In this document: positions 696-11,753 of the stretch, piece by piece
How the letters are laid out: each line of letters opens with the position of its first letter
Numbering within the stretch: position 1 is the first letter of the stretch
Virus record (IMG/VR): IMGVR_UViG_2850790056_000002
Length of the DNA stretch: 17,312 bases
Origin: a virus
Lineage: Duplodnaviria; Heunggongvirae; Uroviricota; Caudoviricetes
Direction: 5' to 3' (one strand)
Made by a program: the position numbers and the translations under genes
Notes under the pieces: generated by a model
Database searches by the model: none
Seen by the model: the letters and a program-made list of their open reading frames with translations, nothing else
Told to the model about the DNA's origin: nothing

Positions 696-777
696 TTGGA
701 AGCATCACCGATATTTATATGTCCGGCCAAATTGAGGTGTGTTTAAATGTAATTGCACATTGATTGTAGGAGGAATA

Positions 778-957
778 ATGAAAAACGCATTGCAGTTTTT
801 GTTTGTTGCGTTCTGGTTGTTCGTATCATGTATGCCCATCATCTTCACAGCAAGGTATATGGAAAAAGTTGATGTTTTGATATTAATATTTGGATATATA
901 AATGCCCTTTTTTTAGGGGTGTCCATGGCGGTCATGTGCATTGAATACTGGCGGTAA
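778..957 (+). CDS. small hydrophobic protein (59 aa, predicted two transmembrane segments), function unknown
   Basis: ATG at 778 preceded by near-perfect Shine-Dalgarno taggagga (767-774) with ~5-nt spacer; the ORF-track frame begins at 739 but 778 is the RBS-supported start. Confidence 0.4.
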   Translation: MKNALQFLFVAFWLFVSCMPIIFTARYMEKVDVLILIFGYINALFLGVSMAVMCIEYWR

Positions 958-959
958 AT

Positions 960-1215
960 ACAGCGAACTCCATTGGTTTAGTTGGATATTTACTGTGCTG
1001 GACAAAAACGGTTTGCGGGGAAATCTTAGTTAAGTAGAATGACTGCGGGTGCTTGAGGCTATCTGCCTCGGGCATGGACACCAACGGCAGATAGAGAAAA
1101 GCCCCAGTTAACACTACGCGTCCTGCAAGACGCTTAACATTAATCTGAGGCCAATTTCATGCTAGACACATGTAGGTTAGCCTCTTACGTGCCGAAAGGC
1201 AAGGAGAAGCAGGCT
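960..1215 (+). promoter_or_regulatory. hok mRNA leader region; an antisense Sok-like RNA would be expected on the minus strand here but was not mapped
   Basis: Position immediately upstream of the hok-family ORF; in-frame upstream extension (mok-like frame from 1159); no promoter mapped precisely. Confidence 0.3.
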
Positions 1216-1371
1216 ATGAAGCAGCAAAAGGCGATGTTAATCGCCCTGATCGTCATCTGTTTAACCGTCATAGTGACGGCACTGGTAACGAGGAAAGACC
1301 TCTGCGAGGTACGAATCCGAACCGGCCAGACGGAGGTCGCTGTCTTCACAGCTTACGAACCTGAGGAGTAA
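1216..1371 (+). CDS. hokD: Hok/Gef-family type I toxin, HokD (RelF)-like
   Basis: 51-aa product MKQQKAMLIALIVICLTVIVTALVTRKDLCEVRIRTGQTEVAVFTAYEPEE matches my recollection of HokD; ATG at 1216 inside ORF-track frame 1159-1371. Confidence 0.85.
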   Translation: MKQQKAMLIALIVICLTVIVTALVTRKDLCEVRIRTGQTEVAVFTAYEPEE

Positions 1372-1441
1372 GAGACCCGGCGAGGGAGAAATCCCTCGCC
1401 ACCTCTGATGTGGCAGGCATCCTCAACGCACCCGCACTTAA

Positions 1442-1470
1442 CCCGCTTCGGCGGGTTTTTGTTTTTATTT
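1442..1470 (+). terminator. rho-independent terminator (hok transcript 3' end)
   Basis: cccgc-ttcg-gcggg hairpin (1442-1455) followed by a T-run; a second GNRA-loop hairpin cgaggga-gaaa-tccctcg at 1381-1398. Confidence 0.6.
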
Positions 1471-1587
1471 TCAACGCATTTGAAGTTCTGGACGGTGCCG
1501 GAATAGAATCAAAAATACTTAAGTAGCGCGCAGGGATAAGAGGGATGGTCCCTTAAAGGGGAGAGCTAATTATCCGGAAGGATTCTG

Positions 1588-1839
1588 ATGATGAACATCG
1601 AAGAACTGCGTAAAATTTTTTGTGAAGATGGCCTCTATGCTGTGTGCGTTGAAAATGGAAATATTGTTAGTCATTACCGCATTGTGTGTTTGCAAAAAAA
1701 TGGGGCTGCGTTAATTAATTTTGTGGATGCCCGAGTGACGGACGGATTTATCTTGCGCGACGGTGAGTTTGTCACTTCATTACAGGCATTGAAAGAGATC
1801 GGAATAAAAGCTGGCTTTTCTGCTTTTTCAGAAGAATAA
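1588..1839 (+). CDS. small prophage protein, Rem-like (83 aa), function unknown
   Basis: ORF with GGAAGG RBS upstream; size and position between hokD and a YdfU-like gene match the Qin prophage rem gene as I recall it. Confidence 0.5.
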   Translation: MMNIEELRKIFCEDGLYAVCVENGNIVSHYRIVCLQKNGAALINFVDARVTDGFILRDGEFVTSLQALKEIGIKAGFSAFSEE

Positions 1840-1905
1840 ACTCATCTACAATCTTGCGCGGGGCTGAACTCCCGCTGAGTAACACCGTGCCACCGGAGAA
1901 AACCG

Positions 1906-2184
1906 ATGGCACGCAACGCAAAATATTACAATCATGATAATTCGACCGTTCTTGCCCACACGCACGAGCGGTATTCTCACGCATTTAAGTCAGACTGGTA
2001 CCAGCATCCCCCATGCACTGAAGAACAGGCCGAATGGCTCATTCAGTGTTACCGCAGGCGCGGATGCGAGGTTAAAAAAGCCCTTAGCCTCGACTACCGT
2101 CACTGGATAATCTCCGTCAGGCTTCCTTACTCCGAACGCCCACCGCGTCCGTCCCGCACATTCCAGCAACGCATCTGGAGGTAA
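1906..2184 (+). CDS. hypothetical 92-aa protein
   Basis: ATG with GGAGA RBS 6 nt upstream; stop 1 nt before the GTG start of the next gene, suggesting translational coupling. Confidence 0.45.
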   Translation: MARNAKYYNHDNSTVLAHTHERYSHAFKSDWYQHPPCTEEQAEWLIQCYRRRGCEVKKALSLDYRHWIISVRLPYSERPPRPSRTFQQRIWR

Positions 2185-2185
2185 C

Positions 2186-3235
2186 GTGCGGGTATTACTT
2201 CGACCTGTTCTGGTACCGGAACTCGGGCTGGTGATCGTTAAGCCGGGCCGTGAATCCATGCCGGTATTCCACAATACCCGGTTACTGGTGGAGCCGGAAC
2301 CGAAAAGCATGCGTAATCTGCCGTCCGGGGTCGTTCCTGCCGCTCGCCAGCCGCTGGTGGAAGACAAAACATTGCTGCCGTTTTTCAGTAACGCACGGGT
2401 GATTCGTGCTGCTGGTGGTGCTGGTGCATTGTCTGACTGGCTGTTGCGCCATATTAAATCCTGCCAGTGGCCACACGGCGATTATCATCACAGCGAAACC
2501 GTCATTCACCGTTATGGTACCGGCGCAATGGTGTTGTGCTGGCACTGCGACAACCAGCTGCGTGACCAGACATCCGAATCACTCGAGCAACTTGCTCATC
2601 AAAACCTGTCAGCATGGATGATTGACGTCATCGGTCACGCAATAAGCGGTACGCAGGAGCGTGAATTATCTCTGGCTGAATTATCCTGGTGGGCGGTCCG
2701 CAATCAGGAGGCGGACGCGCTACCGGAAGCGGTATTACGTCGTTCGCTGGGGTTGCGTGCGGAAAAAATCCGCTCAATGTACTGTGAAAGCGACATCGTA
2801 CCGGGAGAGCAGACCGCCACCAGCATACTGAAACAGCGCACAAAAAATCTTGCGCCGCTGCCTCACGCCCACCAGCAACAGAACCCACCACAGGAAAAGA
2901 CGGTGGTCAGCATTGCCGTTGATCCTGAGTCTCCGGAATCTTTCATGAAACGACCTAAACGTCGTCGCTGGGTTAACGAGAAATACACACGCTGGGTGAA
3001 GACACAGCCGTGTGCGTGTTGTGGTAAGCCAGCCGACGATCCCCATCACCTGATTGGTCATGGTCAGGGCGGAATGGGGACAAAATCTCACGATATTTTC
3101 GCGCTACCGCTGTGTCGGGAGCATCACAACGAGCTTCATGCGGATCCGCTGGCGTTCGAAGAAAAGCATGGTTCTCAGGTTGATTTAATTTTTCGTTTTC
3201 TTGATCACGCCTTTGCAACTGGCGTGCTTGGGTAA
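2186..3235 (+). CDS. ydfU: DUF968 / YdfU-like prophage protein with C-terminal HNH-like (Ref-like) nuclease motif
   Basis: 349-aa ORF from GTG; C-terminal CACCGK...DPHHL...LCREHHNELH resembles a His-Me finger HNH motif; position in the nin-like region upstream of rusA and Q. Confidence 0.65.
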   Translation: MRVLLRPVLVPELGLVIVKPGRESMPVFHNTRLLVEPEPKSMRNLPSGVVPAARQPLVEDKTLLPFFSNARVIRAAGGAGALSDWLLRHIKSCQWPHGDYHHSETVIHRYGTGAMVLCWHCDNQLRDQTSESLEQLAHQNLSAWMIDVIGHAISGTQERELSLAELSWWAVRNQEADALPEAVLRRSLGLRAEKIRSMYCESDIVPGEQTATSILKQRTKNLAPLPHAHQQQNPPQEKTVVSIAVDPESPESFMKRPKRRRWVNEKYTRWVKTQPCACCGKPADDPHHLIGHGQGGMGTKSHDIFALPLCREHHNELHADPLAFEEKHGSQVDLIFRFLDHAFATGVLG

Positions 3236-3247
3236 AAGAGGTGACTG

Positions 3248-3622
3248 ATGCTCATAGATTTGGTTTTACCTTACCCGCCGACGGTGAACACTTACTGGCG
3301 ACGCCGTGGCAGCACATATTTTATCTCGGAGGAGGGAAAGCGTTATCGCCGGGCTGTGGCGCTTATTGTTCGCCAGCAGCGGCTGAAATTAAGCCTGTCC
3401 GGAAGGCTGGCGATAAAGGTGATTGCAGAGCCACCGGATAAGCGTCGTCGCGACCTGGACAATATCCTGAAAGCACCGCTGGATGCGCTGACGCATGCGG
3501 GAGTGTTAATGGACGATGAGCAGTTTGATGAAATCAATATCGTTCGTGGTCAGCCAGTATCTGGTGGACGTCTGGGGGTGAAGATTTACCCCATAATGCA
3601 TGAAGAGCAGGTCAAAAAATGA
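3248..3622 (+). CDS. rusA: RusA-family Holliday junction resolvase
   Basis: 124-aa ORF with PDKRRRDLDN...DAL...DD...GGRL motifs characteristic of RusA; RBS aagagg upstream. Confidence 0.85.
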   Translation: MLIDLVLPYPPTVNTYWRRRGSTYFISEEGKRYRRAVALIVRQQRLKLSLSGRLAIKVIAEPPDKRRRDLDNILKAPLDALTHAGVLMDDEQFDEINIVRGQPVSGGRLGVKIYPIMHEEQVKK

Positions 3623-4440
3623 AACTGGAAGATTTACCGAAATACTACTCCCCAAAATCCCCTTGCCTGACCGATGCATCGGCCTCAACGTCAAAAGATG
3701 CGCTGAGTATCACTGATGTGATGGCCGCGCAGGGCATGACACAGAATCGGGCTGAGATGGGGTTTTCTGCGTTCCTGGGGAAAATGGGCATCAGTATGAA
3801 TGACAGGGCGCGGGAAACAGAATTACTGGCAGATTATGCACTCAGTCGGTGCGATCGTGTGGCGGCGTTGAGAAAACTTCCGGCAGAAATAAAACCGTTA
3901 GTGATGCGCATTATGGCTTCGTACGCTTTTGAGGATTATGCCCGCAGCGCAGCGAGTAAAAAGCAGTGCCCTTGTTGCTATGGGGAAAAATTTATTGAAA
4001 GCGTAGTTTTTGCAAACAAGGTCCAGTATCCGGATGGTAAGCCGCCGGTATGGGCAAAGTGTACGAAAGGTGTGTATCCGTCTTACTGGGAAGAATGGAA
4101 AAAAGTCAGGGAGGTGGTAAAAGTTGCCTGTCCGGAGTGTGGCGGAAAGGGTGAGGTTTCCACCGCCTGTAAGGATTGCCGTGGGCGTGGTGTCGCCATT
4201 CACCGTGAAGAGTCGGTAAAACGTGGTATGTCTGTTATCAGAGACTGCCAGCGTTGTGGTGGTCGTGGCTATGAAAGACTACCATCAACGGAGGCATTTA
4301 ATGCTATATGCGAGGTGACAAACCAGATAACACGCGCGTCATGGGAAAAAACAGTTAAGAAATTCTATGATGCGCTGGTGACCCGGTTTGATATTGAAGA
4401 AGCATGGGCTGAGCGGCAGTTAAAAAAGGTAACTAGGTAA
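3619..4440 (+). CDS. late-gene antiterminator Q-like protein (zinc-finger type, QuuQ/Q82-like)
   Basis: 273-aa ORF starting in an ATGA overlap with the rusA stop; three CxxCxGxG zinc-finger repeats; located immediately upstream of a promoter-like element and tRNA genes as in lambdoid/Stx phages. Confidence 0.6.
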   Translation: MKLEDLPKYYSPKSPCLTDASASTSKDALSITDVMAAQGMTQNRAEMGFSAFLGKMGISMNDRARETELLADYALSRCDRVAALRKLPAEIKPLVMRIMASYAFEDYARSAASKKQCPCCYGEKFIESVVFANKVQYPDGKPPVWAKCTKGVYPSYWEEWKKVREVVKVACPECGGKGEVSTACKDCRGRGVAIHREESVKRGMSVIRDCQRCGGRGYERLPSTEAFNAICEVTNQITRASWEKTVKKFYDALVTRFDIEEAWAERQLKKVTR

Positions 4441-4445
4441 CAAGG

Positions 4446-4473
4446 TTGATTTTTCCGGAATCTGTGGTAGATT
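4446..4473 (+). promoter_or_regulatory. candidate late promoter (pR-prime analogue) downstream of Q
   Basis: -35 ttgatt (4446-4451), 16-nt spacer, extended -10 tggtagatt (4465-4473); assignment by position only. Confidence 0.3.
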
Positions 4474-4583
4474 CGTCATAACGATGGGCTTTTTATGCCT
4501 GACGTTAGAAGAGTTTCTACAACCCGCCGCCGAGCAGGTTTTTTATTGCGGAATTAATTACGGACCGTTATTATTCTGCTCCC

Positions 4584-4659
4584 GGCCCTTTAGCTCAGTG
4601 GTGAGAGCGAGCGACTCATAATCGCCAGGTCGCTGGTTCAAATCCAGCAAGGGCCACCA
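4584..4659 (+). tRNA. tRNA with CAU anticodon (Met or lysidine-type Ile2, ileZ-like as in Stx phages)
   Basis: 76-nt cloverleaf folded by hand: acceptor ggccctt/aagggcc, D-arm gctc/gagc, anticodon loop ctCATaa, T-arm gctgg-ttcaaat-ccagc, discriminator A plus encoded CCA. Confidence 0.85.
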
Positions 4660-4757
4660 TCACAAACCGCCATTAGCTTATCAGGAAGAGCAGACGACAC
4701 GATAACAGGGTTGTTGGTGCGGGGCGGGCCCCGATGGCGGTCCATTATCGGTATTCA

Positions 4758-4834
4758 GCGTTGTTAGCTCAGCCGGACAGAGCAATTGCCTTCTAAGCAA
4801 TCGGTCACTGGTTCGAATCCAGTACAGCGCGCCA
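4758..4834 (+). tRNA. tRNA-Arg (UCU anticodon, argN/argO-like)
   Basis: 77-nt cloverleaf: acceptor gcgttgt/acagcgc, D-arm gctc/gagc, perfect anticodon stem attgc/gcaat with loop ctTCTaa, T-arm actgg-ttcgaat-ccagt, encoded CCA. Confidence 0.85.
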
Positions 4835-4925
4835 TATTCATTCTGCCAGATTCCTTCCGGCAGAGCCTTAGGTGATGCTGCCAACTTACTGATTTAGTGT
4901 ATGATGGTGTTTTTGAGGTGCTCCA

Positions 4926-5201
4926 GTGGCTTCTGTTTCTATCAGCTGTCCCTCCTGTTCAGCTACTGACGGGGTGGTGCGTAACGGCAAAAGCACTGCC
5001 GGACATCAGCGCTATCTCTGCTCTCACTGCCGTAAAACATGGCAACTGCAGTTCACTTACACCGCTTCTCAACCCGGTACGCACCAGAAAATCATTGATA
5101 TGGCCATGAATGGCGTTGGATGCCGGGCAACTGCACGCATTATGGGCGTTAGCCTCAACACGATTTTACGTCACTTAAAAAACTCAGGCCGCAGTCGGTA
5201 A
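4926..5201 (+). CDS. insA: IS1 InsA
   Basis: 91-aa ORF matching classical IS1 InsA ([22 protein letters not shown]...). Confidence 0.95.
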
Positions 5202-5245
5202 CCTCGCGCATACAGCCGGGCAGTGACGTCATCGTCTGCGCGGAA

Positions 5246-5623
5246 ATGGACGAACAGTGGGGATACGTCGGGGCTAAATCGCGCCAGCGCTGGCTGTTTT
5301 ACGCGTATGACAGGCTCCGGAAGACGGTTGTTGCGCACGTATTCGGTGAACGCACTATGGCGACGCTGGGGCGTCTTATGAGCCTGCTGTCACCCTTTGA
5401 CGTGGTGATATGGATGACGGATGGCTGGCCGCTGTATGAATCCCGCCTGAAGGGAAAGCTGCACGTAATCAGCAAGCGATATACGCAGCGAATTGAGCGG
5501 CATAACCTGAATCTGGGGCAGCACCTGGCACGGCTGGGACGGAAGTCGCTGTCGTTCTCAAAATCGGTGGAGCTGCATGACAAAGTCATCGGGCATTATC
5601 TGAACATAAAACACTATCAATAA
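5246..5623 (+). CDS. insB: IS1 InsB frame (InsAB' transposase by -1 frameshift)
   Basis: ORF in -1 frame relative to insA ending 15 bp inside the right end; matches classical IS1 InsB. Confidence 0.9.
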
Positions 5624-5747
5624 GTTAGAGTCATTACCGAGCCTTATACTGAAATATACCTGGCTCAGGATATTGTTGAAAATATTATATGTTTGTCAAA
5701 AATAAAAGTTCTGTTAAGTATTGATTGAGTGTTTGTTATACGGTCTA

Positions 5748-6074
5748 ATGGTTTTTTCAGCATTAAATATTTATCATTCATATGGTGTGGGTAGAGTGAA
5801 TATTGATGAGGCGTCGGGGTGTTTCATCCTTAGGCAGCGTATTGATATAGTCAATGCAGCACGAGCAAAGGCCTTCAGCCGTTTGACAGTTTTGTTCTGT
5901 ACTCCTGATCGTCTTTCGGGAAGAGACGTTATTATTCTGAATAGTGATGCTATACAGAGGGTTTGCGATGAGTTCATGGTTGCTAATTCAGAATTATTTG
6001 CTCTTGTTCAGGAGTACAACAGAATAGCCAGGACCTGTGGTATGGATGAACTTCGGGGTGATGCCTCTAATTAG
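5748..6074 (+). CDS. hypothetical protein in AT-rich cargo segment; last 5 codons and stop supplied by the inserted IS1 (native C-terminus ...ELRITHLG replaced by ...ELRGDASN)
   Basis: Open frame from TTG 5721 / ATG 5748; IS1 copy B inserted at 6056/6057 with 8-bp TSD; joining the flanks restores an ORF ending at the tag now at 6846-6848; start codon uncertain. Confidence 0.4.
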   Translation: MVFSALNIYHSYGVGRVNIDEASGCFILRQRIDIVNAARAKAFSRLTVLFCTPDRLSGRDVIILNSDAIQRVCDEFMVANSELFALVQEYNRIARTCGMDELRGDASN

Positions 6075-6113
6075 TTGAATCTGATGTATAATGCGGGCTT
6101 TTGAGGTTCTTTC

Positions 6114-6386
6114 ATGGCCAGCGTTAACATTCATTGTCCTCGTTGTCAGTCTGCACAGGTCTACCGCCATGGTCAGAACCCTAAAGGCCATGACAGATTT
6201 CGCTGCCGTGACTGCCACCGCGTTTTTCAGCTCACTTACACTTATGAGGCCCGTAAGCCGGGCATTAAAGAGCTGATCACTGAAATGGCCTTCAATGGCG
6301 CCGGGGTTCGCGATACCGCCAGGACACTGAAAATTGGCATTAACACCGTCATCCGGACTTTAAAAAACTCACGCCAAAGCGAATAA
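6114..6386 (+). CDS. insA: IS1-family InsA (divergent type)
   Basis: Identical protein to ORF 1-273. Confidence 0.9.
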   Translation: MASVNIHCPRCQSAQVYRHGQNPKGHDRFRCRDCHRVFQLTYTYEARKPGIKELITEMAFNGAGVRDTARTLKIGINTVIRTLKNSRQSE

Positions 6387-6412
6387 CGTCTTCGCCCGTT
6401 GCTCATGCTGAT

Positions 6413-6808
6413 GTGGCGCTTATCTGCGAACTTGATGAGCAATGGAGTTTCGTTGGCAGTAAAGCCCGGCAACACTGGCTCTGGTACGCGTATAACACCA
6501 AAACAGGGGGGGTACTGGCCTACACTTTTGGTCCCCGTACCGATGAAACCTGCCGGGAACTACTGGCATTGCTTACGCCATTCAACATCGGCATGATCAC
6601 CAGCGACGACTGGGGCAGCTATGGCCGGGAGGTGCCGAAGGATAAGCATCTGACCGGAAAAATATTCACCCAACGGATTGAGCGCAATAACCTGACGCTG
6701 CGCACCCGCATTAAGCGCTTGGCTCGTAAAACAATCTGCTTCTCGCGTTCAGTAGAGATCCACGAAAAAGTCATCGGGACGTTTATTGAAAAACACATGT
6801 TCTACTAA
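6413..6808 (+). CDS. insB: IS1-family InsB frame (divergent type)
   Basis: Same as ORF 300-695 with one substitution (R to Q). Confidence 0.85.
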   Translation: MALICELDEQWSFVGSKARQHWLWYAYNTKTGGVLAYTFGPRTDETCRELLALLTPFNIGMITSDDWGSYGREVPKDKHLTGKIFTQRIERNNLTLRTRIKRLARKTICFSRSVEIHEKVIGTFIEKHMFY

Positions 6809-7184
6809 TTGGAAGCATCACCAACTTCGGATTACTCATCTGGGGTAGATACATATCTGGATTATCACCTGTTACGGTATAAAGTGATTGCTTACTGTTT
6901 TTGTGAATGGCATTGCAGCAGCCGGATAATGTCAGTGTTGGCTGACGGTGTGCTGGTGGCGGGTGTGGTGGTTGTTGCTTTCCCGTTGCTGAAAAAGAAA
7001 ACGCCAGACTGTTAGCCGGGTATCAGTTAGCGGGAGAAATTTTTAAATACTTCACAATTCAGGCGGTTGACTGTTGTCTGGTTTGCGGGGAGTTTGTTAA
7101 AAGAAACTGGCATGGTGAATTGAGGTAGCCTGAGTTTAACGGACACTCCTTCCTGAAATAGAATGGCATCAGAAGGAGCTAATA

Positions 7185-7487
7185 ATGAGCAGAAAAACCC
7201 AACGTTACTCTAAAGAGTTCAAAGCCGAAGCTGTCAGAACGGTTCTTGAAAATCAACTTTCGATCAGTGAAGGCGCTTCCCGATTATCCCTTCCTGAAGG
7301 CACTTTAGGACAATGGGTTACCGCCGCCAGAAAAGGGCTCGGTACTCCTGGTTCCCGCACGGTGGCTGAACTGGAATCTGAAATTCTGCAACTGCGTAAG
7401 GCGTTAAATGAAGCTCGCCTTGAGCGAGATATATTAAAAAAAGCAACAGCGTATTTTGCACAGGAGTCGCTGAAAAATACGCGTTAA
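7185..7487 (+). CDS. IS600 OrfA (HTH transposase N-terminal protein)
   Basis: 100-aa [21 protein letters not shown]... typical of IS3-family OrfA with leucine-zipper C-terminus. Confidence 0.9.
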   Translation: MSRKTQRYSKEFKAEAVRTVLENQLSISEGASRLSLPEGTLGQWVTAARKGLGTPGSRTVAELESEILQLRKALNEARLERDILKKATAYFAQESLKNTR

Positions 7488-7522
7488 TCGAACAATGGCG
7501 ACAACAATTTCCCATTGAAGCG

Positions 7523-8341
7523 ATGTGTCAGGTATTTGGTGTATCCAGGAGCGGTTATTACAACTGGGTACAGCATGAACCCTCAGACAGAAAACAAAGT
7601 GATGAGCGGCTAAAACTGGAGATTAAGGTGGCACATATCCGCACTCGCGAAACATATGGAACCCGGCGGCTCCAGACGGAGCTGGCAGAGAATGGCATCA
7701 TCGTTGGTCGTGACCGACTGGCACGTCTTCGTAAGGAGCTAAGGCTACGCTGTAAGCAGAAACGCAAGTTCAGAGCGACTACGAACTCGAACCACAATCT
7801 GCCAGTTGCGCCAAATCTGCTGAACCAGACGTTCGCTCCTACAGCACCAAATCAGGTCTGGGTGGCGGACCTGACGTATGTTGCCACACAGGAGGGATGG
7901 TTGTACCTCGCTGGCATCAAAGATGTTTATACGTGCGAAATTGTCGGCTACGCCATGGGAGAGCGCATGACAAAAGAGCTGACAGGTAAAGCCCTGTTTA
8001 TGGCGCTCAGGAGCCAGCGCCCACCTGCCGGGCTAATCCACCACTCTGATCGAGGTTCACAGTACTGCGCATACGATTACCGGGTCATACAGGAGCAGTT
8101 TGGTCTGAAAACATCAATGTCGCGTAAAGGTAACTGTTACGACAACGCTCCGATGGAAAGCTTCTGGGGAACGCTGAAAAATGAGAGCCTGAGCCACTAT
8201 CGTTTTAATAACCGGGATGAAGCCATCTCAGTAATACGGGAATACATTGAGATTTTCTACAATCGTCAGCGTCGTCACTCTCGTCTGGGGAATATCTCCC
8301 CGGCAGCCTTCAGGGAAAAATATCATCAGATGGCTGCTTAG
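7523..8341 (+). CDS. IS600 OrfB (DDE transposase catalytic domain; normally made as OrfAB fusion by -1 frameshift)
   Basis: 272-aa ORF in -1 frame relative to orfA with DDE-type motifs (WVADLTY..., HSDRGSQY..., NAPMESFWGTLK); stop tag at 8339-8341. Confidence 0.9.
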   Translation: MCQVFGVSRSGYYNWVQHEPSDRKQSDERLKLEIKVAHIRTRETYGTRRLQTELAENGIIVGRDRLARLRKELRLRCKQKRKFRATTNSNHNLPVAPNLLNQTFAPTAPNQVWVADLTYVATQEGWLYLAGIKDVYTCEIVGYAMGERMTKELTGKALFMALRSQRPPAGLIHHSDRGSQYCAYDYRVIQEQFGLKTSMSRKGNCYDNAPMESFWGTLKNESLSHYRFNNRDEAISVIREYIEIFYNRQRRHSRLGNISPAAFREKYHQMAA

Positions 8342-8507
8342 AAAAAGAACAAATGGTAGTGTCCGCTATTGCCAGTACACCTCAAATCCCCCTGTGCGGA
8401 GGGGCAATCAGCGAGTAGGTATATGGGATAATCGCGGATTCAGGTGCTGGTACTGAATTCACCGGGAGGCACCCGGCACCATGCAATGGCACATAGCGCC
8501 ACTCTCC

Positions 8508-8535
8508 AGCCCCTCTCCGGAGGGGCTGTTTATAT
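8508..8535 (+). terminator. candidate rho-independent terminator
   Basis: 8-bp GC-rich stem agcccctc/gaggggct with tccg loop (8508-8527) followed by gtttatattgatttt. Confidence 0.4.
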
Positions 8536-8560
8536 TGATTTTGTCAGATGTGAGTAAACT

Positions 8561-8592
8561 CCTTATGGACTTTGTTGTTTTAGTCCATAAGG
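8561..8592. repeat. perfect 11-bp inverted repeat with 10-nt T-rich spacer
   Basis: ccttatggact (8561-8571) and agtccataagg (8582-8592) are exact reverse complements. Confidence 0.7.
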
Positions 8593-8734
8593 ACATATTT
8601 GCAGAGTGCAACGGTTATTAAAGCATTCATTCAATACGTTATCTGTATTTGTAGGGCATTCCTGGCTGTTTTTGATTAAATTCCAGAATGTTTTATTGAA
8701 TGGTACTACGTTGTAAATGGGGTGATGCTTCCAA

Positions 8735-9145
8735 TTAGTAGAACATGTGTTTTTCAATAAACGTCCCGATGACTTTTTCGTGGATCTCTACTGAACGCGA
8801 GAAGCAGATTGTTTTACGAGCCAAGCGCTTAATGCGGGTGCGCAGCGTCAGGTTATTGCGCTCAATCCGTTGGGTGAATATTTTTCCGGTCAGATGCTTA
8901 TCCTTCGGCACCTCCCGGCCATAGCTGCCCCAGTCGTCGCTGGTGATCATGCCGATGTTGAATGGCGTAAGCAGTGCCAGTAGTTCCCGGCAGGTTTCAT
9001 CGGTACGGGGACCAAAAGTGTAGGCCAGTCCCCCCCCCTGTTTTGGTGTTATACGCGTACCAGAGCCAGTGTTGCCGGGCTTTACTGCCAACGAAACTCC
9101 ATTGCTCATCAAGTTCGCAGATAAGCGCCACATCAGCATGAGCAA
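8735..9145 (-). pseudogene. insB: IS1-family insB with +1 frameshift in a homopolymer tract (9 C on the plus strand at 9030-9038, versus G7 then T in copies A and B)
   Basis: ORF-track protein fuses an out-of-frame N-terminus (MLMLMW...TPKQGG) to the InsB frame (GLAYTFGPRTDETC...); ORF is 411 nt versus 410 nt for the equivalent span in copy B. Confidence 0.7.
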
Positions 9146-9157
9146 CGGGCGAAGACG

Positions 9158-9430
9158 TTATTCGCTTTGGCGTGAGTTTTTTAAAGTCCGGATGACGGTG
9201 TTAATGCCAATTTTCAGTGTCCTGGCGGTATCGCGAACCCCGGCGCCATTGAAGGCCATTTCAGTGATCAGCTCTTTAATGCCCGGCTTACGGGCCTCAT
9301 AAGTGTAAGTGAGCTGAAAAACGCGGTGGCAGTCACGGCAGCGAAATCTGTCATGGCCTTTAGGGTTCTGACCATGGCGGTAGACCTGTGCAGACTGACA
9401 ACGAGGACAATGAATGTTAACGCTGGCCAT
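9158..9430 (-). CDS. insA: IS1-family InsA (divergent type)
   Basis: Protein identical to ORFs 1-273 and 6114-6386. Confidence 0.9.
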   Translation of the reverse strand: MASVNIHCPRCQSAQVYRHGQNPKGHDRFRCRDCHRVFQLTYTYEARKPGIKELITEMAFNGAGVRDTARTLKIGINTVIRTLKNSRQSE

Positions 9431-9515
9431 GAAAGAACCTCAAAAGCCCGCATTATACATCAGATTCAACTAATTAGAGGCATCACCAGTTATTTTTCAG
9501 ATGGTGGAAAGAACC

Positions 9516-9743
9516 ATGGCATTTAAACACTATGATGTTGTCAGGGCGGCGCCGCCGTCAGATCTTGCGGAAAAGCTGACACATAAACTGAAAGAGGGCT
9601 GGCAGCTGTTTGGTAGTCCGGTGGCCATAACCCCTTATACCCTGATGCAGGCGATTGCAGCAGAAGGTGATGTGGTGGTCAGTGGTGCAATTGAGCCGGA
9701 GTGGTACTACGTCATCGTATTGGCCCGGCATTCCAGGCCATAA
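9516..9743 (+). CDS. small late-region prophage protein of unknown function (possibly DUF1737-like)
   Basis: ATG at 9516 with GGAAAG RBS (ORF-track frame opens at 9501); lies upstream of the holin gene in the late region; family name is a tentative recollection. Confidence 0.35.
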   Translation: MAFKHYDVVRAAPPSDLAEKLTHKLKEGWQLFGSPVAITPYTLMQAIAAEGDVVVSGAIEPEWYYVIVLARHSRP

Positions 9744-10100
9744 AAGACAGTCTGGCAGTGGGACTAAATGCACTGACGCTGACGGATATTACCAAAAATG
9801 CAACGTATGGCGTTGAGATAGAAAGTCTGGTGCTGGAGATAAATGCACCGGCATCATCATAAAAAGTGAGCCAGTCAAACGGAAGGTATCGTTAAACTCA
9901 CCGGTAGTGTCAGTGGGTCGTCTGAGACGCTTGCATTAGTTATCAGAGCCATCAGTAGTTAACTGGTGGCTTTGTTATTGTTGTCAGCTTCCGGATAACG
10001 GGAGACGGGTAGACTGGCCCCCTGAATCTCCAGACAACCAGTATCACTTAAATAAGTGATAGTCTTAATACTAGTTTTTAGACTAGTCATTGGAGAACAG

Positions 10101-11329: not shown

Positions 11330-11347
11330 GGGCAAATCCAACGGGGT

Positions 11348-11563
11348 ATGGACCAGATGGAAAAAATCACAACAGGTGTGTCATACACCACGTCAGCGGT
11401 GGGAACGGGCTACTGGTTCCTGCAGTTGCTGGACAGGGTTTCCCCGTCTCAGTGGGCGGCAATAGGCGTGCTGGGGAGTCTGCTGTTTGGGCTGCTGACA
11501 TATCTGACTAACCTGTATTTCAAAATCAGAGAGGACCGTCGTAAGGCGGCACGGGGAGAGTAA
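11348..11563 (+). CDS. class II holin / pinholin (phage 21 S-like, EssD-like) with dual-start motif
   Basis: 71-aa product ...[50 protein letters not shown] closely matches S21/EssD as recalled; two in-frame Met codons (M1, M4). Confidence 0.8.
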
Positions 11564-11567
11564 TTCA

Positions 11568-11753
11568 ATGACTCAAAACTATGAACTGGTTGTGAAAGGG
11601 ATCCGCAATTTTGAGAATAAGGTTACGGTAACTTTAGCATTACAGGACAAAGAACGCTTTGACGGTGAAATTTTTGACCTGGACATCTCGCTGGACCGTG
11701 TTGAAGGTGCCGCGCTGGAGTTTTATGAGGCAGCGGCCAGAAGGAGCATCTGA
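11568..11753 (+). pseudogene. YdfR-like (DUF1327-like) lysis-cassette gene, 3'-truncated by IS600
   Basis: ORF begins 5 nt after the holin stop; its stop codon tga (11751-11753) is the first three bases of the IS600 terminal repeat; family assignment from recollection of Qin gene order essQ-ydfR-rrrQ. Confidence 0.45.

Follow-up and report, generated by a model that had tools for sequence, protein, structure and literature searches.

The late promoter pR′ of bacteriophage lambda contains, in its spacer, the binding element for the antiterminator Q, and it carries at +1 to +6 the sequence AACGAT, a -10-like element; RNA polymerase holding sigma70 pauses at +16/+17, and Q loads there. The Qin prophage of Escherichia coli K-12 has a Q gene of its own (ydfT/quuQ), and in 933W/Sp5-type Shiga toxin 2 (Stx2) phages a cassette of the tRNA genes ileZ, argN and argO stands upstream of stx2. 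Here we analyse a 17,312-nucleotide stretch of viral DNA (IMG/VR record IMGVR_UViG_2850790056_000002; the window, hereafter), in which positions 3619 to 4870 hold a Q antiterminator gene, a late promoter and two tRNA genes (Table 1). A preliminary description of this DNA had taken the segment for a Stx-phage-like late regulatory module without a toxin, surviving intact although the late operon behind it had been largely destroyed, and had suggested that the tRNAs or Q are retained for the benefit of the host. We read the region as the opening part of the late transcription unit in a Qin/Rac-like lambdoid prophage at the ttcA site, now a decaying relic, and put the probability of this reading at about 0.9; nothing that we found contradicts the assignment to lambdoid late control.

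Results

Origin of the window

Across 14.4 kb the window is 100% identical to Shigella dysenteriae sequence CP026782.1. Complete genomes of S. dysenteriae type 1 (Sd1), Sd197 (CP000034.1) and HNCMB 20080 (CP061527.1) among them, encode a Q protein identical to that of the window, as do many 2–5 kb contigs of short-read assemblies. These identities assign the window to prophage DNA of S. dysenteriae type 1. The prophage locus is flanked by ttcA, the Rac prophage attachment region, and by the sit iron-transport genes.

A lambda-family antiterminator

The Q gene, whose start overlaps the stop of rusA (ATGA), encodes a protein that matches Pfam PF03589 ('Antitermination protein Q') with an E-value of 3.3e-54 and 181.4 bits (cut-off 26.7), and a Pfam search up to E 0.01 returned no family beyond this one and the DnaJ zinc motif. 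The closest solved structure is lambda Q (PDB 7ubm, E 5.3e-40; also 4mo1 and 7ubj); in a PDB search up to E 1 the lambda Q entries were the only antiterminator chains matched, and there was no Q21 chain among them. Homology to lambda Q (7ubm/4mo1) extends over the N-terminal and the C-terminal zinc-finger regions, residues 1–113 aligning with lambda 1–113 and residues 182–273 with lambda 116–207, and the zinc-binding cysteines correspond as well (CKDC and CQRC aligning with CRDC and CGRC of lambda). Residues 114–181 (positions 3958–4161) are a 68-residue insertion relative to lambda Q that carries two additional CxxC motifs; with the lambda-type pair these make four, spaced as in the DnaJ zinc domain, to which (DnaJ_CXXCXGXG) Pfam reports a weak match. 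Three of the motifs are perfect CxxCxGxG repeats (CPECGGKG, CKDCRGRG and CQRCGGRG), as noted in the preliminary description, and the fourth is degenerate (CPCCYGEK).

The insertion is common to K-12 QuuQ and many phage Qs, and in 166 of 249 phage records with a Q match the alignment spans 80% or more of the protein. YdfT/QuuQ of Qin is 40% identical and has all four CxxC motifs, while the 'antitermination protein' of E. coli 55989 is 99% identical, the relatives compared spanning 97.8–99%. Long forms are also found in mEp237 (54% identity), in Stx2c phages (38%) and in phages of Salmonella, Klebsiella, Erwinia and Yersinia. The protein scores above the Pfam threshold, is homologous to lambda Q including its four cysteines and is accompanied by a cognate qut site (see below), which are traits of the lambda-Q family. 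On this homology, Q is a lambda-Q-family member of the long, QuuQ-like form, and not a Q82 or Q21 protein, the other two families with which a comparison had been proposed.

A late promoter with an invariant pause element

We aligned the DNA that follows Q in six sequences: the window, E. coli 55989, mEp237, one Stx2c phage, K-12 Qin and lambda. With the -10 hexamers in register, the sole fully invariant block is the 9-mer AACGATGGG, which lies 6 nt past the -10 in 6/6 sequences, lambda pR′ included, and which occurs once in the window. The preliminary description had pointed out a promoter-like element with an extended -10 at 4446–4473 and had called for a search for a qut-like pause signal behind it; the promoter is present at that site, backed by the register with lambda pR′, and AACGATGGG is the pause signal sought. 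A generic promoter and terminator scan of 3500–5000 missed both pR′, which agrees with the consensus at 8 of 12 positions and falls below the threshold, and the terminator tR′ behind it. Because the scan did not call it, pR′ was assigned by position and by comparison with relatives. Its -10 is TAAATT in the E. coli relatives and in lambda, and TAGATT (G4470) in the window.

The promoter spacer, TTTCCGGAATCTGTGG, has 14 of its 16 positions in common with that of mEp237. Qin and the Stx2c phage have Qs of 94% mutual identity and a common spacer that is different from the window's, and the lambda spacer is different again. The spacer thus covaries with the Q clade, and by analogy with lambda it is a candidate site for Q binding.

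In E. coli the promoter is followed by tR′, a hairpin of 7 bp with five GC pairs (AACCCGC-CGCCGA-GCGGGTT, then T6) that the scan called as a terminator in 55989. In the window the stem reads GCAGG (A4536) instead of GCGGG, and no terminator was called. The wild-type hairpin folds with -11.2 kcal/mol, whereas the Sd1 allele no longer prefers the hairpin and the terminator fold is lost; the 55989 copy has the GC-rich hairpin and U-tract of an intrinsic terminator, and the window copy does not. As in lambda, the terminator would delimit a short constitutive transcript: its position at about +42 to +66 gives a terminated leader of ~65 nt (194 nt in lambda), the counterpart of lambda 6S RNA.

This leader (4480–4545 in the window; 3345–3425 on the minus strand of the K-12 Qin locus; 3320–3385 of the Stx2c phage locus) is conserved in sequence though the Qs share no more than 38–40% identity. 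Like StxS and lambda 6S RNA, it might have a function as a small RNA (sRNA). Rfam has no match to it, and folding z-scores were unremarkable for the leader (4480–4583; -1.0), the spacer between the tRNAs (-0.5) and a hairpin past argO (-1.8), giving no sign of additional structured RNA. The hairpin past argO (4841–4866) is imperfect in E. coli (TCTTCC...GGCAGA) and has become a perfect 7-bp stem (TCTGCC...GGCAGA) by a lineage-specific T-to-G change at 4845; no U-tract stands behind it.

Table 1. Features of the late-control region and of the insertion that ends it (positions of the window)
Feature	Position	Strand	Details and basis
Q antiterminator gene, lambda-Q family (PF03589), long form of 273 aa	3619–4440	+	Pfam, PDB alignment, relatives
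Late promoter pR′	4446–4473	+	-35 TTGATT (4446–4451), 16-nt spacer, TG-g-TAGATT extended -10 (4465–4473)
Candidate Q-binding element, promoter spacer TTTCCGGAATCTGTGG	4452–4467	+	Covariation with Q clade
Sigma70-dependent promoter-proximal pause element (qut core) AACGATGGG	4480–4488	+	Starts at inferred +1
Terminator tR′, crippled	4521–4545	+	Comparison with E. coli copies
Candidate cassette promoter	4546–4574	+	TTGCGG, 17 nt, TATTAT; ends 9 nt before the tRNA
tRNA-Ile2 (ileZ type), CAU anticodon, CCA encoded	4584–4659	+	ARAGORN, Rfam, alignment
Degenerate argN, relic of tRNA-Arg(UCG)	4666–4744	+	Alignment with argN of phi346
tRNA-Arg (UCU), argO type, reads AGA, CCA encoded	4758–4834	+	ARAGORN, Rfam
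IS1 target-site duplication GAGCCTTA	4863–4870; second copy 5639–5646		8 bp; sequence
IS1	4871–5638		Cuts the late transcription unit 36 nt past tRNA-Arg

A tRNA cassette with a candidate promoter of its own

ARAGORN, run over the whole window, found exactly two tRNAs, with anticodons CAT and TCT (Arg), and the Rfam tRNA model scored them at 72.5 and 68 bits (gathering score 29), confirming the CAU/UCU pair. The first is 100% identical to the ileZ that precedes stx2 in the Stx2a phage phi346, and the second matches argO of phi346 except at 2 of 77 positions. The two are separated by 98 nt that align to argN. Acceptor stem, D-arm region and CCA are kept in this relic; the anticodon arm has given way to a 7-bp stem closing a 3-nt loop, and the T-loop, cut down to 4 nt, is destroyed. 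ARAGORN did not call the relic, Rfam gave it no tRNA score at E up to 10, and a permissive Rfam search of 4400–4900 returned the two tRNAs and chance matches only. The same relic is found in phage 813R8 and in E. coli 55989, and since the latter has it, the loss of argN is older than Shigella; the S. dysenteriae copy has an extra 2-nt deletion and two substitutions at 4724–4728. The window's ileZ-argN-argO cassette thus has near-identical ileZ and argO genes and a degenerate argN, and many prophages that lack stx carry such a cassette as well.

Homology with Stx2a and Stx2c phages starts abruptly 40 nt upstream of ileZ. These 40 nt include a candidate promoter (consensus TTGCnG, 17 nt, TATyAT) that is kept upstream of ileZ in five contexts, Stx2a and Stx2c phages among them, whereas the sequence farther upstream is unrelated. 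It seems that the cassette brings this promoter along and that Q is not needed for its expression.

We also compared the use of ATA and AGA codons. In prophage genes of E. coli 55989 they make up 12.5–14.7 and 9.8–11.5 per 1000 codons, in stx2AB 36.6 and 14.6, and in the effector genes of the Sd197 virulence plasmid 29.7 and 13.9, which is about tenfold the 2–3 and 0–1.6 of the chromosomal genes, a handful of which were sampled. The rare-codon bias for which a check had been proposed is thus present. A search of the literature on ileZ/argN/argO and Stx-phage tRNAs with rare codons found nothing useful.

Lineage-specific changes and the question of host benefit

When the sequence was polarised against three relatives that agree among themselves, 28 changes proved specific to the S. 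dysenteriae copy. Two of them fall in regulatory elements: position 4470 lies in the -10 and position 4536 in the stem of tR′. Among 5,426 complete E. coli genomes we found none with either allele, but 1,082 with the wild-type tR′ 35-mer. The coding changes comprise 12 non-synonymous and 5 synonymous ones, the proportion expected without selection. All three changes in Q are non-synonymous (A66E, T132A, P205S), with none synonymous, and Ala66 is conserved in lambda Q and QuuQ. To judge by these substitutions, Q shows the pattern of relaxed selection and is not a gene kept for function. The tRNAs have no lineage-specific change in 153 nt, against 4–7 events in the other 277 non-coding nucleotides of 4441–4870. 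At the average rate, ~1.1 changes would be expected in the tRNAs, and the chance of none is (277/430)^4 to (277/430)^7, or 0.17 to 0.05; as only about one change is expected, zero is not significant and the test is powerless.

These counts bear on the proposal that a Stx-phage-type late module has been held intact by the host, Q and/or the tRNAs being beneficial, which we consider unlikely. Its attractions are the unchanged tRNAs, the codon usage of the Sd197 effector genes and of stx2AB, a promoter of the cassette's own (PMC7547250) and the tR′ mutation, which would allow transcription from pR′ to run on into the tRNAs without Q. The module, however, is not intact: its -10 and tR′ are mutated, argN is a relic, and every change in Q, A66E at a conserved alanine among them, alters the protein. 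Nor is it specific to Stx phages (see below), and all genes of the 4.1-kb prophage fragment on which it sits are intact, in keeping with a recent survival by chance in a clonal genome ridden with insertion sequences (ISs). Retention of Q for host benefit is unsupported, given its 3:0 changes and the mutated -10 and tR′. A benefit from the tRNAs is plausible, to go by codon usage, because the Sd197 effector genes use ATA and AGA so much more than chromosomal genes do. The mutations at 4470 and 4536 could be neutral decay or could free the tRNAs from dependence on Q. That the remnant now amounts to a tRNA cassette in the service of the host, its own promoter and a disabled tR′ yielding constitutive, Q-independent decoders of AUA and AGA that would aid translation of stx and of the AT-rich effector genes on the virulence plasmid, we hold to be improbable.

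Identity and origin of the tRNAs

The ARAGORN label for the CAU tRNA, which considers the anticodon only, is Met, and several phage annotations say likewise; that this is an elongator or initiator tRNA-Met instead of tRNA-Ile2 is nevertheless highly improbable. The gene is close to K-12 ileX and has C4, C5 and G68, G69, whereas metT has T4 and A5, and its acceptor and anticodon stems are unlike those of metT. The pairs C4-G69 and C5-G68 are determinants for lysidine synthetase (TilS). The NCBI Prokaryotic Genome Annotation Pipeline labels the identical gene in E. coli copies tRNA-Ile. By its ileX-like body the CAU tRNA is tRNA-Ile2, which would decode AUA after modification of C34 to lysidine by the host.

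Prophages often integrate into tRNA genes. That the two tRNAs are leftovers of such a site (attL/attR in a host tRNA gene) and not cargo, which is how a recent survey reads tRNA matches near prophage sRNAs (bioRxiv 10.64898/2026.05.13.724894), has next to no probability here, since they lie between Q and the lysis genes, as they do in 813R8, mEp460_ev081 and phi346, far from the integrase end, and the chromosomal junction of the prophage is at ttcA, 6 kb away.

Distribution and comparison with known systems

Of the 5,426 complete E. coli genomes, 1,121 contain 80% or more of the region 3400–5000, with best matches of ~99% identity, and NCBI annotates these copies as RusA, antitermination protein, tRNA-Ile and tRNA-Arg. 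The gene order hokD, rem, orf92, DUF968/YdfU, RusA, Q, tRNA-Ile, tRNA-Arg recurs at ~99% identity in E. coli 55989 and ~1,100 other complete genomes. Past the tRNAs, 55989 continues with DUF3927, TolA-like genes, holin EssD, lysozyme, Rz and terminase, and mEp460_ev081 has the same layout; phage vB_EcoS-813R8 continues with IraM-like and DUF1737 genes, then the lysis cassette. In none of these three relatives did we find stx downstream of the tRNAs, and the window has no stx-sized open reading frame (ORF) and no toxin homology anywhere, in line with the absence of a toxin reported earlier. The architecture is that of a generic lambdoid late region and not a hallmark of Stx phages. The proposed Stx-phage link holds to the extent that stx2 phages carry a homologous cassette; the claim that the arrangement is characteristic of them does not survive its spread in E. 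coli. As a lambdoid late-control region the element is of a standard kind, already known and annotated by NCBI in more than 1,000 E. coli genomes.

The 55989-type prophage, mEp460_ev081 and 813R8 carry essentially the same element, with 96–99% DNA identity over 1028–4870 and the same Q; they differ from the window in that the -10 (TAAATT) is of the wild type, tR′ is intact and the lysis and structural genes are still present downstream. K-12 Qin shares the gene order (hokD, rem, ydfU, ydfT/quuQ), with 91% DNA identity from hok to ydfU, and the pR′ pause, leader and terminator are homologous. It belongs to another Q clade with another promoter spacer, lacks rusA between ydfU and Q, and has cspF and cspB in place of a tRNA cassette. 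Lambda shares the homologous Q, the promoter geometry and the place of AACGATGGG, but its Q is without the insertion and the two added CxxC motifs, its presumed Q-binding spacer is unrelated, and it lacks the tRNA cassette that stands past tR′ here. In phi346 the cassette with its 40 upstream nucleotides is conserved, but there argN is not wrecked, stx2 follows, and the ORF in the position of Q encodes 145 aa and is not a lambda-family Q. In Stx phages, Sy et al. described a clade of 144-aa Q proteins that is paired with StxS RNA (PMC7547250).

We considered whether the remnant is the missing front half of the Stx prophage of S. dysenteriae type 1 and set this aside: the stx prophage remnant, with an integrase fragment of its own, lies between sapC and ycjW and has IS600 directly upstream of stx (PMC7819885).

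Decay of the late region

The Q–tRNA segment sits on a 4.1-kb prophage fragment (710–4870) that has IS1 at both ends and contains hok/sok, rem, a 92-aa ORF, the DUF968/YdfU gene, rusA, Q and the tRNAs. ISs crowd the window, with four copies of IS1, four of IS600 and other IS3-family elements. The IS1 behind argO is a simple insertion flanked by the 8-bp target duplication GAGCCTTA, and homology to 55989 picks up again at 5639 with an overlap of 8 bp; position 4870, where the preliminary description ended the module, is the last base before this IS1. Colinear phage pieces remain between the IS copies at 5639–6056, 6823–7120 (DUF3927), 8385–8720, 9490–10009 (DUF1737) and 11341–11753 (holin and a truncated DUF1327). 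Broken up by copies of IS1, IS600 and IS3-family elements, the phage late region stops inside the lysis cassette, and no lysozyme, Rz or structural genes were found in the window. The late operon had rightly been described as largely destroyed.

E. coli TUM9757 carries an IS1 (at ~9470 of its locus) 3 bp upstream of the site taken by the S. dysenteriae copy, the junctions being GAGCC|GGTGATG there and GAGCCTTA|GGTGATG in the window. We rejected inheritance in common, as junctions 3 bp apart mean independent insertions, and two independent insertions suggest a local hot spot for IS1 just past argO. The copy at 4871–5638 is an IS1A-like isoform; the other three (1–709, 6057–6822 and 8721–9487) are nearly identical to one another and so strongly diverged from it that blastn gives no long alignment. 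The four IS600 copies (7112–8393, and from 13064, 14524 and 15246) are all in direct orientation and fall within a span of 9 kb, some of them truncated or nested with IS3-family elements. S. dysenteriae type 1 assemblies vary among themselves across this IS600-rich stretch, which suggests continuing IS-mediated rearrangement.

Two further RNA loci were observed. Near the start of the fragment, a hok/sok type I toxin–antitoxin locus (1047–1221; Rfam sok, 111 bits) with hokD is followed by rem, as in K-12 Qin. Rfam also matches the sRNA STnc100 at 8356–8539 (79 bits; gathering score 47), overlapping the right end of an IS600 copy, whose repeat arm ends at 8393; the DNA from 8385 on is 99% identical to the IraM-like region of phage 813R8. 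According to a 2026 preprint, STnc100 is related to prophage PasD sRNAs, which adjoin PF03589 Q genes.

Discussion

In the intact phage the module is predicted to work as its lambda counterpart does: the early rightward transcript would yield Q, and pR′ would fire constitutively. The non-template AACGAT at +1 to +6, an element marked out by its exact conservation, mimics a -10 element and would make polymerase holding sigma70 pause ~16 nt downstream. Q would bind the promoter spacer and load onto the paused polymerase, making it resistant to terminators, and the modified polymerase would read through tR′ and then transcribe the tRNA cassette, the accessory genes and the lysis and structural genes. 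The ileZ-argN-argO cassette would supply tRNAs that read AUA and AGA, codons several-fold more frequent in phage genes than in host genes, and with what appears to be a sigma70 promoter of its own it is probably transcribed in lysogens without Q. As the sequence stands, it is likely that in this genome only the two tRNAs, with their own promoter, still do anything.

Some points weigh against this picture. Every step ascribed to Q is carried over from lambda by homology at 28–39% identity. The pR′ hexamers are weak, and the Sd1 -10 mutation may weaken the promoter further; the -35 of the cassette promoter matches the consensus at 3 of 6 positions. The transcription start mapped before the tRNA cassette is that of the Sakai Stx2a prophage, not of this element (PMC7547250).

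As a discovery the locus carries little weight, its parts matching lambda, K-12 Qin and the Stx2-phage tRNA cassette. The comparison does show that pause element, short leader and terminator have been strongly conserved together throughout the long-form lambda-Q clade, between members as far apart as K-12 Qin and the Stx2c phages, and this unit offers a simple signature by which to locate pR′ in such prophages. The tRNA cassette with its own promoter, in turn, appears as a discrete module moving between unrelated Q regions. The idea that such tRNAs serve the translation of virulence genes is old, reportedly going back to the first Stx-phage genomes; if it were true of the Shigella effector genes, the two tRNAs preserved here would make a tidy example of the domestication of a prophage remnant.

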